DNA from: Aromatoleum sp.
Lineage (GTDB): Bacteria > Pseudomonadota > Gammaproteobacteria > Burkholderiales > Casimicrobiaceae
Direction of reading: 5' to 3'
NCBI GenBank assembly: GCA_010365205.1
Contig: JAAFGU010000001.1
Coordinates: 12,672 to 41,651, forward strand
DNA length: 28,980 nt
Every line of letters begins with the position of its first letter. Position 1 is the first letter of the stretch. The notes beneath the pieces were generated by a model. It was not told the origin of the DNA. It saw only the letters and a program-made list of their open reading frames with translations, and did no database searches. Shown in pieces: positions 10,669-28,827 of the stretch. The translations under genes and the position numbers were made by a program.

Positions 10669-11897
10669 CAGAGATTGGCGTGATGCGAGCTTCGGCCGCG
10701 AGCCAGCACGGCGTCGGGCTCCCGGCATGGTCGATCGTCCTGCCATGGGACCCCAGCCGGCCGGGCGGGGTCGACCTGGTGGCGCTGAACCTGTACCGTG
10801 AAATGCGCTCGCGCGGCGTGTATGAACCGCGGATGCTGATCGCGTCGTGGGAACATCCCGCGCCGCTCGACAGTGTCGACGACGGCCGGCCGACCACCCG
10901 GATCCGGTTGCGGTCGCCCGTTGGCGGTCGATCAGCGCTTGTGCATGCGCTGACATGGCTGCTGGCGCTACCTGCCGAACTTCCGCGCCTTGCCCGTCAC
11001 CTGCGTGCACACCGCGTCGCCGTCGTGAATGCGCATTTTCCCGGGCTGTCGGCGCTGCAATTCGTGTTGGTCAAGCGCTTCCTCTACCGCGATCTGCGCG
11101 TCGTCCTCTCCTTTCACGGACTCGATATCGGCGGCGCGGCGCGGACGCGCGGACTCGAGCGCTGGTTGTGGCGACGCCTGCTGCGCTCCGCCGACGCGCT
11201 GGTTGCCTGCTCGCACGATCTCGCCGGGCAGATCCGGGCCTTCGATCCCGGCGTGACGGCGAGGACGGTGACCATCCACAACGGCCTCGATACGGACGGC
11301 TTTCTCGCCGAAGCCGCGCCTGATGCTGTTCTGGATCCGCGCCTCGAGGGCCGCCGTTACATCCTCAGCGTTGCCGCGTACGAGCCCAAGAAGGGCCTGG
11401 ACGTGCTGATACGCGCGTTCGCGTCGCTGGTGCCGCGCGTCGAACCCGATGTCTTGCTCGTGCTGGTCGGCGTCGATCGCGGGATCCGCGCGGAGCTGCT
11501 GGCGCTCGCCGCGAACCTGGGTGTCGCCGATCGCGTCGTGTCGTTCACCGACGTCGCTCAAGCGCGCCTTCACCCCTTCTACCGGGCGGCGACCGCCTTC
11601 TGCCTGCCGTCGCGCCGCGAGCCGTTCGGGCTGGTACTGCTCGAGGCGGGCGCGTATTCGCTTCCGGTGGTGGCCTCGCGGGTGGGCGGGGTGCCGGAAA
11701 TCATTGCGCACGGCGAGACCGGACGGCTCGTGCCGCCCGAAGACCCGGAAGCGCTCGCCGCCGAGCTGCAGGACCTGCTGTCGCACCCCGCTGAGCGGGC
11801 CCGGCTGGGCGCGGCGCTGCATTCCCGCGTGCGTGCACGGTTCACCTGGGCTGCGGCGTACGAGCGCTACGTCGCGTTGCGGGCGCTCGAGCCCTGA
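10665..11897 (+). CDS. GT4 glycosyltransferase
   Basis: GTGA overlap with the previous gene (alternative ATG at 10683). Motifs VVNAHFPG, IHNGLD, SVAAYEPKKGLDVL, PSRREPFGLVLLEAGAYSLPVVASRVGGVPE. Confidence 0.88.
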   Translation: MTEIGVMRASAASQHGVGLPAWSIVLPWDPSRPGGVDLVALNLYREMRSRGVYEPRMLIASWEHPAPLDSVDDGRPTTRIRLRSPVGGRSALVHALTWLLALPAELPRLARHLRAHRVAVVNAHFPGLSALQFVLVKRFLYRDLRVVLSFHGLDIGGAARTRGLERWLWRRLLRSADALVACSHDLAGQIRAFDPGVTARTVTIHNGLDTDGFLAEAAPDAVLDPRLEGRRYILSVAAYEPKKGLDVLIRAFASLVPRVEPDVLLVLVGVDRGIRAELLALAANLGVADRVVSFTDVAQARLHPFYRAATAFCLPSRREPFGLVLLEAGAYSLPVVASRVGGVPEIIAHGETGRLVPPEDPEALAAELQDLLSHPAERARLGAALHSRVRARFTWAAAYERYVALRALEP

Positions 11898-11935
11898 CGC
11901 GCATCCCGCCGCGTCCGCCGTGCACCCGGAACCGC

Positions 11936-13105
11936 TCAAGCGGTGCGTAGAAAGTACACGGGTTTGTCGAACGCCTGCGCAATCACCACGCCCTTGAGGT
12001 TGGGCACGTATTGCATCCGGCTCATGATCGCCGTGTCGCCGCCGTTCACGCCCGCACCGTAGGCGACTGGAGGAGTGCCCGTCGTGGGCAGTTTCGAAAC
12101 GGCGAACGTCGTCGGATCGATCACGTAAATCTCTTCGAGGTCCGTGAAGTACAGGAACCTGTCGAGCACCGGATCGTGGACGAAGCCTGCGCCGGATGCG
12201 CGACGCAGTGGCAGCCCCGAAGCGGGGGCGTCACGATAGGCGGCCGGACGCTTGGACAGATCGAAGTAGCCGATCTGCGAGTCGCCCATTCCGGGGCGCG
12301 GTCCGATCCGCACCAGTCGACTTCGCAGCGGGTCGACGAGCGCGCACCCGCGGTCGACGTCGACCCATTCGGTATCGGCCAGGATGGCATCCGGTTGCCC
12401 GGTGGCGTTGTTCCAGAGCTGAATTAGGTGCGAGCTGGGGAAATAGACGTCGCCGGTAACGGGATGCTGCGCCACCCAGTTCCCCTCGTATCCGCCGGCC
12501 CTGGCGTACATGCGTCCGTAGTGTTCAGCGGGGTACCAGCGGCCTCCGGACGCCAGAGGGATCGCATCGACCTGCCAGCCCTTGCCCTTGTCCATCGGCC
12601 AAACCGGGCCGCAACCATAGACGATCAACTCGTCGCGCCCCGCGTTGTATTGCGGCGCGTAGTACGAGTGCCGTGACACCGGCGTTCCATCGGGGTTGTA
12701 GAACGCGCTGCTGTTCGATTGATTGGTCCGCACGCCGGAGGCATTTGACGGCTTCACGATGCAGAACCATCGCGGCGCGTCGGTTTCCAGGGCAAGGGCG
12801 CGGACCTCGTTGCCGCCCCAAGTCCGACCGCCACCGCCGAACGACATCAGCATGCTGTCGGACTTGCGAAGGGCACCGCCGCTGAACGTGAAGGTACCCG
12901 TTCGCGGATTCGTGCCGAAGCCAATGTCCCGCCAGTTCCGGTCGGTGAGGCCAGCCGCGACCAGGTCGGCCAGCACCGCCGGGCTGTCGATTTGCCGCGT
13001 ATTCGGAATCGCGACCCATTCGCCGACCTTCCTTCCCTGAAGCCATGCTGGAATCCGTGCGGCCGTTGCCGCGGGAAAGCTGAGCGGGGCAGAGGTGGAC
13101 TTGAT
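11936..13105 (-). CDS. Gene C: hypothetical beta-propeller-like protein, 389 aa if initiated at ATC 13105 (first canonical start is GTG 12976)
   Basis: Frame is open from 13105 to TGA 11936. Upstream of the GTG it reads IKSTSAPLSFPAATAARIPAWLQGRKVGEWVAIPNTRQIDSPA. The body has repeated aromatic/DP blade-like motifs (SFGGGGRTWGGNEV, LVDPLRSRL, VHDPVLDRF, YVIDPTTF, MQYVPNLKG). Start position is uncertain. Confidence 0.72.
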   Translation of the reverse strand: MKSTSAPLSFPAATAARIPAWLQGRKVGEWVAIPNTRQIDSPAVLADLVAAGLTDRNWRDIGFGTNPRTGTFTFSGGALRKSDSMLMSFGGGGRTWGGNEVRALALETDAPRWFCIVKPSNASGVRTNQSNSSAFYNPDGTPVSRHSYYAPQYNAGRDELIVYGCGPVWPMDKGKGWQVDAIPLASGGRWYPAEHYGRMYARAGGYEGNWVAQHPVTGDVYFPSSHLIQLWNNATGQPDAILADTEWVDVDRGCALVDPLRSRLVRIGPRPGMGDSQIGYFDLSKRPAAYRDAPASGLPLRRASGAGFVHDPVLDRFLYFTDLEEIYVIDPTTFAVSKLPTTGTPPVAYGAGVNGGDTAIMSRMQYVPNLKGVVIAQAFDKPVYFLRTA

Positions 13106-13111
13106 TTACGG
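13092..13111. repeat. 20-bp direct repeat, copy 1 (B/C junction)
   Basis: GAGGTGGACTTGATTTACGG versus GAGGTGGGCTTGATTTACGG at 20611-20630 (19/20 identical). Confidence 0.9.
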
Positions 13112-13276
13112 GCCTCCGTGACGGTAGAAGAGCAGGCCGGGGTTCGGCATGCCGATGCCGCCCGCCCAAAGCGACCAGTCGTCGGGCACCCACGGGCATG
13201 GCAACGCCAGCGGTGTTCCGAGGTGGCCGTCGATCATGGCGCAGTCGAACGCCGAACGCGGTGACGTCGATTTCAT
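13106..13276 (-). CDS. Mini-B: 56-aa protein or internally deleted remnant of gene B (absent from the ORF track)
   Basis: MKSTSPRSAFDCAMIDGHLGTPLALPCPWVPDDWSLWAGGIGMPNPGLLFYRHGGP*. The first half matches the N-terminus and the second half the C-terminus of 20625..21728. ATGA overlap with gene A1. Confidence 0.7.
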   Translation of the reverse strand: MKSTSPRSAFDCAMIDGHLGTPLALPCPWVPDDWSLWAGGIGMPNPGLLFYRHGGP

Positions 13277-13620
13277 TGCCCGTCATCCGCATCGATGATG
13301 ATGCCTGCGAGATCGCCGTGGCCGATGCGGGTCAGGATGCCTTCGCGGCTGAGCATCAGCACGCCGGCAATCGGGGCGCTCCGCGCGTTGAGCGAGAACG
13401 TCAACGGGTTGCCGTCCGGATGCGTCACGAATGTGCGCAGGTCGAGCGATGCTCCGATCGCGAGCGCCGCGCCCGAAAAGCCTGCCAACCAGGCGGCCTC
13501 GCGATCGGAGGTGAATGACGACGCGGGTTCCTTCGTATTCTTGGCGCCGACCCCGCACGCCGCCGAAGGGGCGATGAGCGCGCCTGCGCCTGCGATGATG
13601 AAATCACGGCGAGAGGTCAT
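13273..13620 (-). CDS. Gene A1: twin-arginine (Tat) signal protein with Ig/cadherin-like C-terminal domain, 115 aa
   Basis: MTSRRDFII followed by a hydrophobic stretch; GAGGA SD upstream; DLRTFVTHPDGNPLTFSL...EGIL...IIIDADDGQ. Paralog of 21725..22072. Confidence 0.8.
   Translation of the reverse strand: MTSRRDFIIAGAGALIAPSAACGVGAKNTKEPASSFTSDREAAWLAGFSGAALAIGASLDLRTFVTHPDGNPLTFSLNARSAPIAGVLMLSREGILTRIGHGDLAGIIIDADDGQ
13277..13299. repeat. 23-bp perfect direct repeat, copy 1 (A/B junction)
   Basis: TGCCCGTCATCCGCATCGATGAT is identical at 13277-13299 and 21729-21751. Confidence 0.9.
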
Positions 13621-13847
13621 TCCATTTTCCTCAGCGGAGTCCTCAATCTTTCACGGCGAGCAACGGCTCGTAGGCCGATGCTGCCTCGGTTCGCAACAGG
13701 GGCCGTTCGACCCCACGACTTGCAATCGAATGAATTCTAGACCAAATGCAATCGCGCTTCTGGAGGTTGCCGCACAGGCCGCGTGCGGCGAGATTTTGCA
13801 ATCATCGGGATTCAAGCCAGCATTGCCGCCCGGCGAGACCGCCATTC

Positions 13848-15356
13848 TCAGCCCCACCGCGTCAGGATGCGGCGTACGTCGTGCGCAATCGGGTGCCGCA
13901 CTGCGAAGACCATGGCCAGCCAGACCGGCAACGTCGTTGCCGCGGCGATGACGATGACCGCCCAGCCCGGGAGATGCTGGCCTCGAGACAGCACGGTCGC
14001 AAGGAGCGTTATGGCGATCGACGGAACGGCGATGGCCAGGCTCGGTCCGGCTGCCCGCAGAATGGCGCCAAGCGAAATGCCGAACACGCGGGAAAGGCTC
14101 ACCTGCGATGCAGCCACCGAGACGAGCGACATCGCGCTCATTGCAATCGTGACGGCGATGAGCCCGAACGGAGCGGCGACAATCAGGACGGCGACGCGGC
14201 AGATCAACGTGAAGAGCAGCACGTTGAAGGCGGGTCGAAGGCGGCCGAGTCCGGTATAGAAGGTGCTCCAGAGCAGATACGGGACGTAAAGCATGTTGCC
14301 CAGCACGATGATTCGGACGAGGTCAACCGACGGCAACCATTGGGAACCGTAAAGAAGCGCGATGAGTTCGGGCGCCAGGATGCCCACCGCAGCGAGCGCG
14401 GGCCACACCAGCGCGGTCAGATAGCGTACCGTGTTGCAGAATCCTTGACGCAGATCTCCGCCCGCCCGATTCTTTTCGGCGAAATACGGTGCGGCCACCG
14501 TGTAGACCGCCGAAGTGAAAACCCGGTAGACGATGTCCAGGATGGTGTTCGCCCGGCCGTAGAACCCGACCGCGACGAGCGAAATCACGCGGCCGATGAT
14601 CAGATCCGGGACGCCGCGCGCTACCTCGATCACGATGGCAGTGCCGCTCGACCACGCTCCGAAGCGAAATACCTCGCGCATGTGCCGCAGCGAGGGCCTC
14701 CAAGGCCAGTCGCGCGGACGGTACCGGAGAGCAAGCAGGATCGTCACGATGCTTCCGGCGAGAAGCCCCCACGCCATGCTCATGTAGCTGAATCCGGCAA
14801 ATGCGAGCATCACGGTCGTGGAAGAACCGACGATGGCGCTCGCGAGCCGGACAACCAATATCTTCCCGAAGTCCAGGTTGCGGCGGACCCACGCCATCGT
14901 TACGGTGCCGAACGGGATCAGCATGAAAGAGATCGCCAGTACGGACATGACCTTGGCGACGCCGGCTTCGCGATAAAAGATTGACGCCGGCCACGCAACG
15001 AGCAGAAGAACGGCCGCCAGCCCGAATCCGGTCACCATCGCAAGCGCGGAAGCTGTGCGGATCTTGTCGACGGTCAGGTCGCGCTCTTGGGCGATATAGT
15101 CGGCTACGCCGAAGTCCCGCAATACCTGGGCCACTGCCACGAGGACCATCGCGACGGAAAACGTCCCGAATTCCGCCGGCGTCAGCAGCCGCGCGACGAT
15201 CAGCGACGCAACGAACTGGATCAGCGTCGTGGCGTAGTTCTGAAGAAAGGAGAGCGCTAGCGCGCGACGGATTTTTGACAAGGGAACACGCTGCCCTGTG
15301 GGTGCCGCGATGATCCGCTCGGAGTCCTCCCCGGGCGGCGAAAGGTCCGGGAACAT
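13848..15356 (-). CDS. wzx: Wzx-type polysaccharide flippase (MOP/PST family)
   Basis: Many hydrophobic helices; IVARLLTPAEFG, PDLIIGR...VGFYGRA, LLYGSQWLPSV. Start may be a few codons downstream. Confidence 0.88.
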   Translation of the reverse strand: MFPDLSPPGEDSERIIAAPTGQRVPLSKIRRALALSFLQNYATTLIQFVASLIVARLLTPAEFGTFSVAMVLVAVAQVLRDFGVADYIAQERDLTVDKIRTASALAMVTGFGLAAVLLLVAWPASIFYREAGVAKVMSVLAISFMLIPFGTVTMAWVRRNLDFGKILVVRLASAIVGSSTTVMLAFAGFSYMSMAWGLLAGSIVTILLALRYRPRDWPWRPSLRHMREVFRFGAWSSGTAIVIEVARGVPDLIIGRVISLVAVGFYGRANTILDIVYRVFTSAVYTVAAPYFAEKNRAGGDLRQGFCNTVRYLTALVWPALAAVGILAPELIALLYGSQWLPSVDLVRIIVLGNMLYVPYLLWSTFYTGLGRLRPAFNVLLFTLICRVAVLIVAAPFGLIAVTIAMSAMSLVSVAASQVSLSRVFGISLGAILRAAGPSLAIAVPSIAITLLATVLSRGQHLPGWAVIVIAAATTLPVWLAMVFAVRHPIAHDVRRILTRWG

Positions 15357-20498: not shown

Positions 20499-20540
20499 CG
20501 CTAAGCCCGGCGCCGACGTGCGCCGGCACTGTACTTAGCG
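20499..20540. terminator. Composite inverted repeat between convergent genes (possible terminator or structured RNA)
   Basis: CGCTAAG-c-CCGGCGC-cgacgt-GCGCCGG-cactgta-CTTAGCG: two perfect 7-bp stems; no U-tract. Confidence 0.35.
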
Positions 20541-20603
20541 CCCGCGCCTCGCGCCAGAGGATCGCCGACATTGCGTAGAAGAGGTAGGCGAGATCAAAAT
20601 ACG

Positions 20604-20624
20604 CGGAGCTGAGGTGGGCTTGAT
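20604..20624 (-). pseudogene. Seven-codon stub of gene C (IKPTSAP)
   Basis: Directly follows the TAA of gene B2 in frame and matches IKSTSAP at 13105-13085. Similarity then ends and the frame stops at 20535-20537. Confidence 0.6.
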
Positions 20625-20630
20625 TTACGG
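20611..20630. repeat. 20-bp direct repeat, copy 2 (B/C junction)
   Basis: 19/20 identical to 13092-13111. Confidence 0.9.
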
Positions 20631-21728
20631 ACGTCGATGACGATAGAAGAGCAGATCGGGATTCGGCACGTCGACGCCGCCTGCCCACATCGACCAGTCG
20701 TTCACCGGATCGTAGACGGCCATTCGCGCTTGAAGCTTCCTGCCGTTGGGGGCATCGACGGCGGCGACGCGCCAGCGGTTTTCCGACGGCTGGTAGACGT
20801 AGAGCCGGCCGTCGTTGAGGTTGAGGTATTCGACGACGCGATGCCGGCTGTTGAACACGATGTGCGTGTGGTTCGCCGCCCGCGGGGTCTCGAGCGGCCC
20901 TGGCGGCGGCGCGCGCTCGGAAAATGCACCGCTGTCCATGTCGATTCGGATGAACAGCGCATCGATCGGGTCGATTGTGTAGACGCAACGGCCCGACAGA
21001 TCGATCGCGACATAGTCCTTCCAGATGCTGGGCTTGCGACCCCTGCTGTTGTCAGGAAGATTGACGGGCACGCGCCACGAGGGCGGCGACGTCGCAATGT
21101 CCAGCACCTGCATTTTCGGTCCCAGCCCGATCCGGCTTATGGTCCTTTTCACCGGATCGAGCCACGAGAACCACGAATCGGTGTAAGCGATGCCTGCGTC
21201 AACGCCCGCCCTCGACCACCGTCGCGGCGGCGGCGCGAACGGGTCGAACCACATCACCTCGTCATGGACGAAGTTCGCGTCGCTGGCACGCGCCGGTGTT
21301 TCGTTGGGTGGATTGTCCGTGGTGATATCCATCACGCCAGGAATCATCCAGAACCGGTGGAGCATGGCATCCCACTGCCAGCCGACGTAATCGGGGTGTT
21401 TGGGCTGCACCGAATTCCCGCCGAATCCGGCGTACGGGTACTCGAGCCGCCAACCCGCGTTCGGGTTCCGGGGATTCGCCATCCGCTCGGCGACGTCAAG
21501 CGACCAGGTTTCCTGGCGGTAGCTGCTGACCCATGGCTGCCCGCCGTAGTCGCCGCCGACGAAATAGATGCGCCCATTGTCCGGACAAAAGGCGCCCGTG
21601 ACATGTTTCATCCCCCCGCCCCACGGAGGCGCGTTCGGGGCGAACCCGCACGGCAGCGCGAGCATGGTTCCGAGTAGACCCTCCGGAGTCTGGCACGCGA
21701 AGGTCAACGGCGTTGAGGTTGCCTTCAC
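20625..21728 (-). CDS. Gene B2: hypothetical beta-propeller/kelch-like protein, 367 aa, no signal peptide
   Basis: GTGA overlap with gene A2. Blade-like motifs GRIYFVGGDYGG, WQWDAMLHRFW, MWFDPF, SWLDPVKR, YTIDPID, AVYDPVND. Both termini are homologous to mini-B. Confidence 0.78.
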   Translation of the reverse strand: MKATSTPLTFACQTPEGLLGTMLALPCGFAPNAPPWGGGMKHVTGAFCPDNGRIYFVGGDYGGQPWVSSYRQETWSLDVAERMANPRNPNAGWRLEYPYAGFGGNSVQPKHPDYVGWQWDAMLHRFWMIPGVMDITTDNPPNETPARASDANFVHDEVMWFDPFAPPPRRWSRAGVDAGIAYTDSWFSWLDPVKRTISRIGLGPKMQVLDIATSPPSWRVPVNLPDNSRGRKPSIWKDYVAIDLSGRCVYTIDPIDALFIRIDMDSGAFSERAPPPGPLETPRAANHTHIVFNSRHRVVEYLNLNDGRLYVYQPSENRWRVAAVDAPNGRKLQARMAVYDPVNDWSMWAGGVDVPNPDLLFYRHRRP

Positions 21729-27972: not shown

Positions 27973-28827
27973 TTGCCCGCCGGTAGCTTCAAGGCGGTGA
28001 AGAAAGGCATCAAGCGGCGCCTCAAGATGCTGCGGCAAGCTTTCGCTCGGACCTTCCGTTCATTCACGCCCGACGACTTGCTGGAGCGATTGCGGCAGCT
28101 GGGTATCGTGCCGGGTGACGTCGTACTCGTCCACAGCTCTTACGACGCATTCGAGGGATTTTCGGGCAAGCCGACCGATGTAATCGCGATCCTTCAGCGA
28201 GCAGTCGGCGCGGAGGGAACGCTGCTGATGCCGACGATGGCGTTCACGGGGACTGCCGTCGAGTACGTCAGTCGCACGCCGGTGTTCGACGTGGCGCGCA
28301 CGCCCTCGCGGATGGGCCTGCTCAGCGAACTCTTTCGCCGCTCTCCGGGCGTCGTGCGCAGCGTGCACCCGACGCACCCGGTGGCGATCTGGGGGCGCGA
28401 CGCCGAAGGACTCGCCGCCGATCACCATCGGGCGGGCACGCCGTGCGGTGCGGGGACCCCGTTCGCCCGGCTGCTCGAGCGGCAAGGTAAAATTCTGTTC
28501 CTGGGTGCTGATATCGACAGCCTGACCTTCTACCACACGATCGAGGAAATGCTCGAAACGCGCCTGCCGGCCTCGCCGTTCACGCAACAGGTCTATCAGC
28601 TGAAGTCGAAGTTGCCGGACGGCACGTCGGTCGTCACGCAGACGCGTCTGTTCGAGCCCTCCGTTTCCCGCCGCCGCAACCTCGGCAAGCTGGCGCCGGA
28701 ACTGCGTCGGCAGGGCGCTTGGCACGAGGCGCGCGTGGGCCGGCTCAAACTGACTCTTCTGGGGACCAGCGATGTGCTGGCGGCGGTCGCCGCGATGGCC
28801 GATCGAGGGGCGTACTGCTATGACTGA
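27973..28827 (+). CDS. AAC(3)-family (aminoglycoside 3-N-acetyltransferase/YokD-like) acetyltransferase
   Basis: GDVVLVHSS, GTLLMPT, PSRMGLLSELFR, RSVHPTHPVAIWG, ILFLG...TFYHTIEE. TTG start is uncertain. Confidence 0.85.
   Translation: MPAGSFKAVKKGIKRRLKMLRQAFARTFRSFTPDDLLERLRQLGIVPGDVVLVHSSYDAFEGFSGKPTDVIAILQRAVGAEGTLLMPTMAFTGTAVEYVSRTPVFDVARTPSRMGLLSELFRRSPGVVRSVHPTHPVAIWGRDAEGLAADHHRAGTPCGAGTPFARLLERQGKILFLGADIDSLTFYHTIEEMLETRLPASPFTQQVYQLKSKLPDGTSVVTQTRLFEPSVSRRRNLGKLAPELRRQGAWHEARVGRLKLTLLGTSDVLAAVAAMADRGAYCYD

Follow-up and report, generated by a model that had tools for sequence, protein, structure and literature searches.

A putative AUC start codon at a stop-start junction in an exopolysaccharide gene cluster of Aromatoleum sp.

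In Escherichia coli, AUC has been reported to initiate translation at 1-2% of the level of AUG, with an N-terminal Met demonstrated by mass spectrometry (10.1101/063800), and older work cited in PMC5499595 placed this level at approximately 5% of AUG. According to the latter source, infC uses AUU or AUC, and AUH codons account for 0.004-0.024% of annotated starts (PMC5499595). Translational coupling by termination-reinitiation has been described in E. coli and Haloferax, where intragenic Shine-Dalgarno (SD) motifs usually matter, and support for it comes from genes whose stop and start are spaced by -4, -1 or a few nucleotides (nt) (PMC6728339, PMC12548453). Here, we describe a locus that combines features of both, namely the start of gene C in a 28,980-nt stretch of DNA from Aromatoleum sp. 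(GenBank assembly GCA_010365205.1, contig JAAFGU010000001.1, positions 12,672 to 41,651; hereafter the window). The open reading frame (ORF) of gene C, which is predicted to encode a propeller protein, begins with ATC directly behind the TAA stop codon of a short ORF, miniB. A preliminary description of the window had proposed that C is made either by re-initiation at this AUC or by readthrough of the UAA.

The closest counterparts with respect to the codon are infC, encoding initiation factor 3 (IF3), and pcnB, in which, as proposed for C, a near-cognate AUH codon behind an SD motif starts a conserved protein that has no canonical alternative. Unlike in C, the odd codon of infC is a sensor for autoregulation by IF3 and is located at a free 5' initiation site, whereas C is an unrelated propeller gene with its ATC abutting the stop codon of the preceding ORF. 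The infC gene of the same genome (L042, G000:C470:4758-5261, minus strand) itself appears to have no canonical start near its conserved N-terminus; its start is likely an ATA that lies in frame and follows GGAGA at about 8 nt, which fits the known use of AUH by infC.

With respect to geometry, the junction resembles the trpE-trpD (UGAUG), galT-galK and ATGA pairs, being co-directional, with a stop-start spacing of 0 or -1 nt and an SD motif inside the upstream coding sequence. The A-B junctions of the same operon are classic ATGA or GTGA overlaps, as in coupled pairs. Unlike in trpE-trpD and galT-galK, the putative restart codon of C is ATC rather than ATG, GTG or TTG, and its coupling is suggested by the geometry. 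A study of re-initiation at non-canonical codons (PMC4648390) concerns Xenopus oocytes and was set aside as not applicable. A third counterpart is a 1293-aa secreted protein of the genome G080 (L041 705-4586, minus strand; G080:C3), in which a B-like propeller is followed by a C-like propeller. This chain contains the same two modules in the same order as genes B and C, with ...FFLFRYK running straight into the C core (SAPAWLSGKPVNEW). In contrast to the separate genes, it is a single polypeptide with its own signal peptide, two immunoglobulin-like repeats and two further C-terminal repeats, and it lacks a stop, an ATC junction and an MK.TS tag ahead of the C module. The fusion of the two propellers in G080 suggests that the two modules work together.

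The junction and the proposed start of gene C

Translation of gene C probably begins at AUC 13105..13103 and would be coupled to the end of translation of the upstream ORF. This reading is favoured because the ATC, a strong and well-spaced SD motif and the N-terminal peptide are all shared with the orthologue in G231, and because no canonical start precedes the conserved core. Ribosomes would finish the upstream ORF (miniB here, full-length B in relatives) and terminate at UAA 13108..13106, the GGAGG motif 7 nt upstream would hold the terminated ribosomes, and these would use initiator tRNA to restart at the AUC next to the stop. In that case, the C protein would begin fMet-Lys-Ser-Thr-Ser-Ala-Pro-Leu-Ser-Phe, and miniB, a deletion relic, may persist because it delivers ribosomes to the C start. 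We infer from the sequences both that AUC is the codon used and that initiation depends on upstream termination rather than on free binding of 30S subunits. On balance, an AUC start at this stop-start junction looks like a new instance of a known but rare bacterial phenomenon. The features concerned are listed in Table 1.

Table 1. Features of the two A-B-C copies and of the candidate starts of gene C (window positions)
Feature	Position	Strand	Remark
Gene C	11936..13105	-	389 codons from ATC; predicted Kelch-type six-bladed beta-propeller
GTG, codon 44 of C	12974..12976	-	first canonical in-frame start; within modelled helix 42-50, past the PAW...W.AI..T block
ATT, codon 18 of C	13052..13054	-	in-frame rival start; aligned with TTG in G231; -1.7 kcal/mol, no SD
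C codons 1-11, (I)KSTSAPLSFP	13073..13105	-	conserved tag common with B-type proteins (MK.TS..L.F)
ATC	13103..13105	-	proposed initiation codon of C; 0 nt from miniB stop
miniB	13106..13276	-	56-codon ORF, ends TAA 13108..13106
GGAGG (SD)	13113..13117	-	inside last miniB codons (CAC GGA GGC), 7 nt before ATC
Gene A1	13273..13620	-	115 aa, twin-arginine signal and lipobox (MTSRRDFIIAGAGALIAPSAAC...); first of A-miniB-C unit
Copy 2 junction remnant	20535..20624	-	ATC AAG CCC ACC TCA GCT CCG..., 29 open codons
Gene B2 (copy 2)	20625..21728	-	full length, 367 aa, ends ...YRHRRP TAA
Tag positions	13073-13105, 13247-13276, 21699-21728	-	C, miniB, B2

All genes concerned lie on the minus strand. The two copies of the junction were found as previously described: positions 13111..13085 read CCG TAA ATC AAG TCC ACC TCT GCC CCG (copy 1) and positions 20630..20604 read CCG TAA ATC AAG CCC ACC TCA GCT CCG (copy 2), with synonymous differences at Ser (TCT/TCA) and Ala (GCC/GCT) and with Ser or Pro at codon 3. 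When up to two mismatches were allowed, the 20-nt pattern CCG TAA ATC AAG YCC ACC TC was observed at two sites, both on the minus strand (13092-13111 and 20611-20630), against an expectation of 0.00 matches in 100 dinucleotide shuffles. The TAA-ATC junction is not an assembly artefact. A Logan contig of 23,763 nt from run X1, which is probably the source sample, covers positions 12700-13700 with 0 differences, and a 240-nt contig from run X3, belonging to another study, covers 13046-13285 with five differences and no gaps (approximately 98% identity). Four of these five differences were placed, at 13076 (TTT>TTC, synonymous at F10), 13095 (ACC>ATC, T4I), 13137 and 13140, the last two within miniB, and these four leave GGAGG, TAA and ATC untouched. 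As the X3 contig carries the junction, the miniB deletion and the TAA-ATC arrangement are present in a related strain elsewhere. Runs X2 and X4 yielded only short or divergent pieces, none of which bridges the junction.

Where can gene C start? Translation of 13276..11936 gives 56 aa, a stop and 389 aa. Behind the TAA, the C frame of copy 1 holds no ATG, GTG or TTG for 43 codons, in agreement with the preliminary description; the first is GTG 12976, from which 346 aa remain. The only near-cognate codons between the TAA and approximately codon 19 are ATC (codon 1), AAG (2), ACG (14) and ATT (18). After removal of duplicate loci and of matches beginning past query residue 25, tblastn matches at 20 distinct distant loci were found to begin at residue 18-22 of the C query in 14 cases, at residue 14 in one and at residues 2-6 in five. 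In an alignment of 25 sequences, the block PAW(L/M)Q..(P).N(Q/E)W.AI..T was aligned in most rows. The AlphaFold2 (AF2) model of C gave a pLDDT of 94-96 for residues 21-50, with a predicted strand at 29-32 and a predicted helix at 42-50, and values below 50 for residues 1-12, which appear disordered or flexible. Conservation thus reaches upstream of GTG 12976, contrary to the outcome that the preliminary description had named as speaking against its proposal. Because this GTG is codon 44 and would cut a folded, conserved protein, the start is placed between the TAA and approximately codon 19. No canonical start separates the upstream in-frame stop from the conserved core, which runs from about residue 19. 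For the homologue P0003 (78% identity; 346 aa), the called start corresponds to GTG 12976; because gene callers choose that GTG when there is no upstream canonical start, the call suggests that P0003 is probably also without one and that the arrangement recurs there.

The peptide that follows the stop does resemble the start of B-type proteins: C begins IKSTSAPLSF, miniB begins MKSTSPRSAF, and B2, the full-length B protein of copy 2, begins MKATSTPLTF. Further B-type proteins begin MKTTSGSLTF (P0010), MKATSPALIF (P0011), MKTTSPPLAF (P0012) and MKATSPSLSF (P0013), and the expression MK[AST]TS..[LS].F describes the extreme N-terminus in all six B-type sequences seen (B2, miniB and P0010-P0013). 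Searched in six frames of the 3.0-Mb assembly, the tag expression returned four matches, three of them the starts of C, miniB and B2 and the fourth a chance match on contig 478. Since the tag is the extreme N-terminus of B-type proteins, the Ile codon of C occupies the position of the B initiator Met. If functional, the tag needs translation from codon 1, which fits a start at AUC and not one at AUU or GTG. The codon at the ATC position, which the preliminary description had singled out for comparison, was found to be ATC in the relative G231 and in the X3 strain, and the protein P0001 (74% identity), with the N-terminus MK-IKTTSVSLSFP, has Ile after MK.

In G231 (L025), a full-length B gene ending ...YRHGGS precedes the orthologue of C, and the junction is cacGGAGGctccTGATCaaggtcacc. 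It reads cacGGAGGctccTGATCaag, with GGAGG 6 nt before ATC AAG and a duplex energy of -9.5 kcal/mol. The TGA stop of B and the ATC have 1 nt in common (TGATC), and the C frame differs from the B frame. The stop-start spacing of these co-directional genes is thus 0 nt in the window (TAA|ATC) and -1 nt in G231. Duplex energies, calculated with a 9-nt motif as the anti-SD consensus, were likewise -9.5 kcal/mol for the ATC site of the window and -1.7 kcal/mol each for ATT 13054 and GTG 12976. An energy of -9 kcal/mol or lower was obtained at 1.9% of 3000 random genome positions, and GGAGG occurs at a frequency of 7.7e-4 per nt, corresponding to approximately 0.4% of sites at any of five spacings; a strong SD motif within 5-9 nt of the ATC is present in both genomes, at 7 nt in the window and 6 nt in G231. 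The in-frame TAA of the window excludes an upstream canonical start and the frames of G231 exclude readthrough, and only initiation at or near the ATC fits both. At the protein level, the residues I1, K2, T4, S5, L8, F10, P11, P19, A20 and W21 are shared by the window and G231, the codons of S5, L8, F10 and P19 differing synonymously; over the first 21 codons, six are identical, four synonymous and 11 non-synonymous. The ATC and the SD motif stayed in place over a synonymous divergence (dS) of 1.47 while C stayed functional. Copy 2, which no longer has C, has CGACG in place of GGAGG and a duplex energy of 0.0 kcal/mol, a decay that we count in favour of the AUC start.

The ATC is kept in G231, the X3 strain and the copy 2 remnant, the number of independent orthologous DNA junctions among these being one. 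Genome-wide counts of GGAGG-stop-ATH are uninformative, as many of them are ATGA overlaps of ordinary starts. The RNA of the junction was predicted to fold no more stably than its shuffles (z +1.24 for the window, +0.48 for G231, and +0.07), and Rfam gave no match at the junction. An anti-SD-like CCACCUC is located in C codons 3-5 (UCC ACC UCU; window 13091-13117, minus strand) and can pair with the GGAGG. This pairing of 5 bp, which puts the AUC in a loop, appears for both the window and G231 when the fold of minimum energy is taken, whereas the centroid lacks it.

The propeller product and the duplicated A-B-C unit

Gene C had no Pfam match by sequence. Its AF2 model (pLDDT 83.9, pTM 0.86) matched Keap1, KLHDC and designed SAKe propellers in Foldseek, with E of about 1e-8 and TM of 0.4-0.6, and on the basis of this model the fold is a six-bladed Kelch-type propeller. 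No paralogy between C and B2 was detectable by BLASTP (best E 0.021). The MK.TS tag is common to these two propeller families of the operon, B and C, which are without detectable kinship.

Homologues of C were found in four of 41 relatives and, within the family, in 12 of 326 genomes (E <= 1e-20). At E <= 1e-60, one of 401 genomes of the order matched, namely G000 itself, with no further orthologue, and a single scan each of metagenomes and genomes for closer orthologues returned only homologues of approximately 40% identity or less. Between C and its orthologue in G231, 70% of amino acids are identical, with dN/dS 0.145 over 389 codons (0.30 over codons 1-43), and the C reading frame is free of stops over the 389 codons in both the window and G231. 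By these measures, gene C is under purifying selection and appears to be a functional gene. In the distant homologues, the C module is preceded by a signal peptide and lipobox or by a large N-terminal domain. In L011, L012, L018, L019, L023, L024, L027 and L028, the C-type propeller was observed to be a C-terminal module after a domain of 500-650 aa, and this N-terminal domain ends ...W(L/F)DHYHGGT...YIGPM.

The ORF upstream of C had been taken for a B gene. Its translation, the alignment of its DNA to the start and end of B2 and comparison with B orthologues revealed instead the relic of an in-frame deletion: miniB joins, in frame, the approximately 30 codons at the start and the approximately 26 at the end of a B-type propeller gene that encodes 367 aa. 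The stop TGA of A1 overlaps the ATG of miniB (ATGA), and the GTG of B2 overlaps the stop of A2 (GTGA). B2 is a propeller protein with a Kelch_6 match below threshold. A1 had no Pfam match, and the homologue search with A recovered only A itself. As A1 and A2 are only 48% identical, the duplication is old.

The second junction, likewise, turned out not to join a B gene to a C gene. Its ATC frame reaches a stop at 20537..20535 after 29 codons and no gene C follows; with the frame open for just 29 codons, copy 2 has lost C. We read this stretch as what is left of the 5' end of a C gene that has decayed. Of an A-B-C unit that was once duplicated, the genome thus retains a complete B in copy 2 and a complete C in copy 1. 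Judged from the gene content, this pattern looks like reciprocal loss with function kept, rather than general decay.

Alternatives and points of doubt

A number of observations weigh against initiation at the AUC. The orthologous junction DNA compared comes from G231 and the near-identical X3 strain alone. P0001 has an ATG two codons before the Ile, so that at least one orthologue has a canonical start and the ATC there may be an internal Ile codon. In G231, codons 15, 17 and 18 are in-frame GTG, GTG and TTG, the first of these positions being the called start of P0002, and further in-frame GTG and TTG are located 21 and 24 codons upstream; thus, G231 taken alone does not need the ATC. The SD scores of these alternatives are weak, from -3.0 to -4.3. 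In a genome of 66% GC, Ile is preferentially encoded by ATC, and finding this codon in each copy says little by itself. Of the conserved N-terminus, 11 of the first 21 codons differ non-synonymously from G231, and the T4I change of the X3 strain falls inside the tag. Initiation at AUC is inefficient in E. coli (1-5% of AUG), and very little C would be made unless coupling helps. Finally, four of seven B C-termini (miniB, G231, P0011 and P0012) contain the HGG whose codons carry the GGAGG, those of B2, P0010 and P0013 do not, and the HGG may partly be kept as a protein feature.

The preliminary description had offered re-initiation and readthrough side by side, and the comparative evidence favours the former and counts against the latter. 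Readthrough of the UAA, which would yield a miniB-C fusion of 446 residues (56 + 1 + 389, as had been calculated), is very unlikely. MiniB and C do share a frame with one stop between them, and a natural single chain of B-like and C-like propellers exists in the 1293-aa protein of G080 (...FFLFRYKSAPAWLSGKPVNEW...). However, B and C of G231 are in different frames (TGATC overlap), so that no C is obtainable there by readthrough, which therefore is not a shared mechanism. No stable structure is predicted at or after the stop (z +1.24 and +0.48), Rfam gave no match, and in a fusion the N-terminal tag would end up in the interior of the chain. A further point against readthrough is the stop codon itself, as UAA is recognized by both release factors and leaks least among the stop codons. 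A start within the C frame but behind the ATC was considered at two codons. The in-frame AUU at codon 18 (13054..13052) is located just ahead of the PAW block, and the 17 codons before it would be an untranslated spacer. It is aligned with TTG in G231 and Val in P0001, P0002 was called three codons upstream of its position, residues 1-12 of the C model are disordered, and AUU is better documented as a non-canonical start, in infC and pcnB (10.1101/063800). Nonetheless, a start at this AUU is improbable: it has no SD motif (-1.7 kcal/mol in the window, -3.0 in G231), and it would not account for the conservation of IK.TS..L.FP as protein (synonymous changes at S5, L8 and F10), for the match of this peptide to the N-terminal tag of six B-type proteins, or for the strong SD motif positioned for the ATC in two genomes. 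As for GTG 12976, a gene caller would annotate C there (346 aa), as the first in-frame ATG, GTG or TTG and in line with the call of P0003; however, the codon lacks an SD motif (-1.7) and lies inside helix 42-50, so that the protein would lose strand 29-32 and the PAW...W.AI..T block, which is conserved down to 30% identity, and with dN/dS of 0.30 over codons 1-43, a start at this GTG is barely credible.

It could also be that C is poorly or not expressed in this organism, the ATC being a mutated ATG and copy 1 decaying in the way of miniB and the copy 2 remnant. The locus is indeed eroding, with just 56 codons of B left in copy 1 and C lost from copy 2, AUC is a weak start, and P0001 has a canonical ATG nearby. 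Such decay is nevertheless unlikely in view of the ATC and SD motif held in common with G231 across a dS of 1.47, the dN/dS of 0.145 and 389 open codons in both genomes, the unchanged junction of the X3 strain, and the retention of exactly one full B and one full C. If C is indeed initiated at the AUC by coupled re-initiation, a wider proposal may be put forward, although as a whole it is doubtful. The AUC may have been kept as making the translation of C obligately dependent on ribosomes from the upstream ORF, with miniB as a ribosome-delivery leader; MK.TS..L.F may be a docking tag by which B and C, which have no signal peptide, attach to the twin-arginine translocation (Tat) lipoprotein A for export; and the present gene content would follow from reciprocal loss after operon duplication. 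If true, this would represent an assembly line, enforced by the start codon, that builds a hitchhiker export complex. Prediction of a complex between full-length C and mature A1 (residues 24-115), run without controls, scored 0.29 and 0.01, the mark being 0.32, and speaks neither for nor against docking.

Annotation and gene neighbourhood

An AUC start would matter for annotation, as standard gene callers miss it: C of the window and P0003 are cut to 346 aa, P0002 is called 14 codons late, and the calls of C, P0002 and P0003 all lose the conserved N-terminal tag and part of the fold. Few natural AUC starts outside infC are well supported. With a strong SD motif right at the stop codon, this junction offers a clean case for asking whether termination-reinitiation relaxes start-codon discrimination, and junctions with a stop-start distance of zero or -1 nt would be worth checking for ATH codons too.

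The A-B-C units are located inside an exopolysaccharide cluster, in which A1, miniB and C sit downstream of a flippase gene (15356..13848). Other genes of the cluster encode asparagine-synthase-like proteins, several GT4 glycosyltransferases, UDP-glucose dehydrogenase, WbsX, a pyruvyl transferase, a heparinase II/III-like protein, Wzy, a methyltransferase and a deacetylase. A promoter and terminator scan of 11700-14000 found no site. At the edge of the polysaccharide cluster, window positions 27973-28827 (plus strand) contain an ORF with a Pfam match to aminoglycoside 3-N-acetyltransferase (PF02522, E 1.8e-52).

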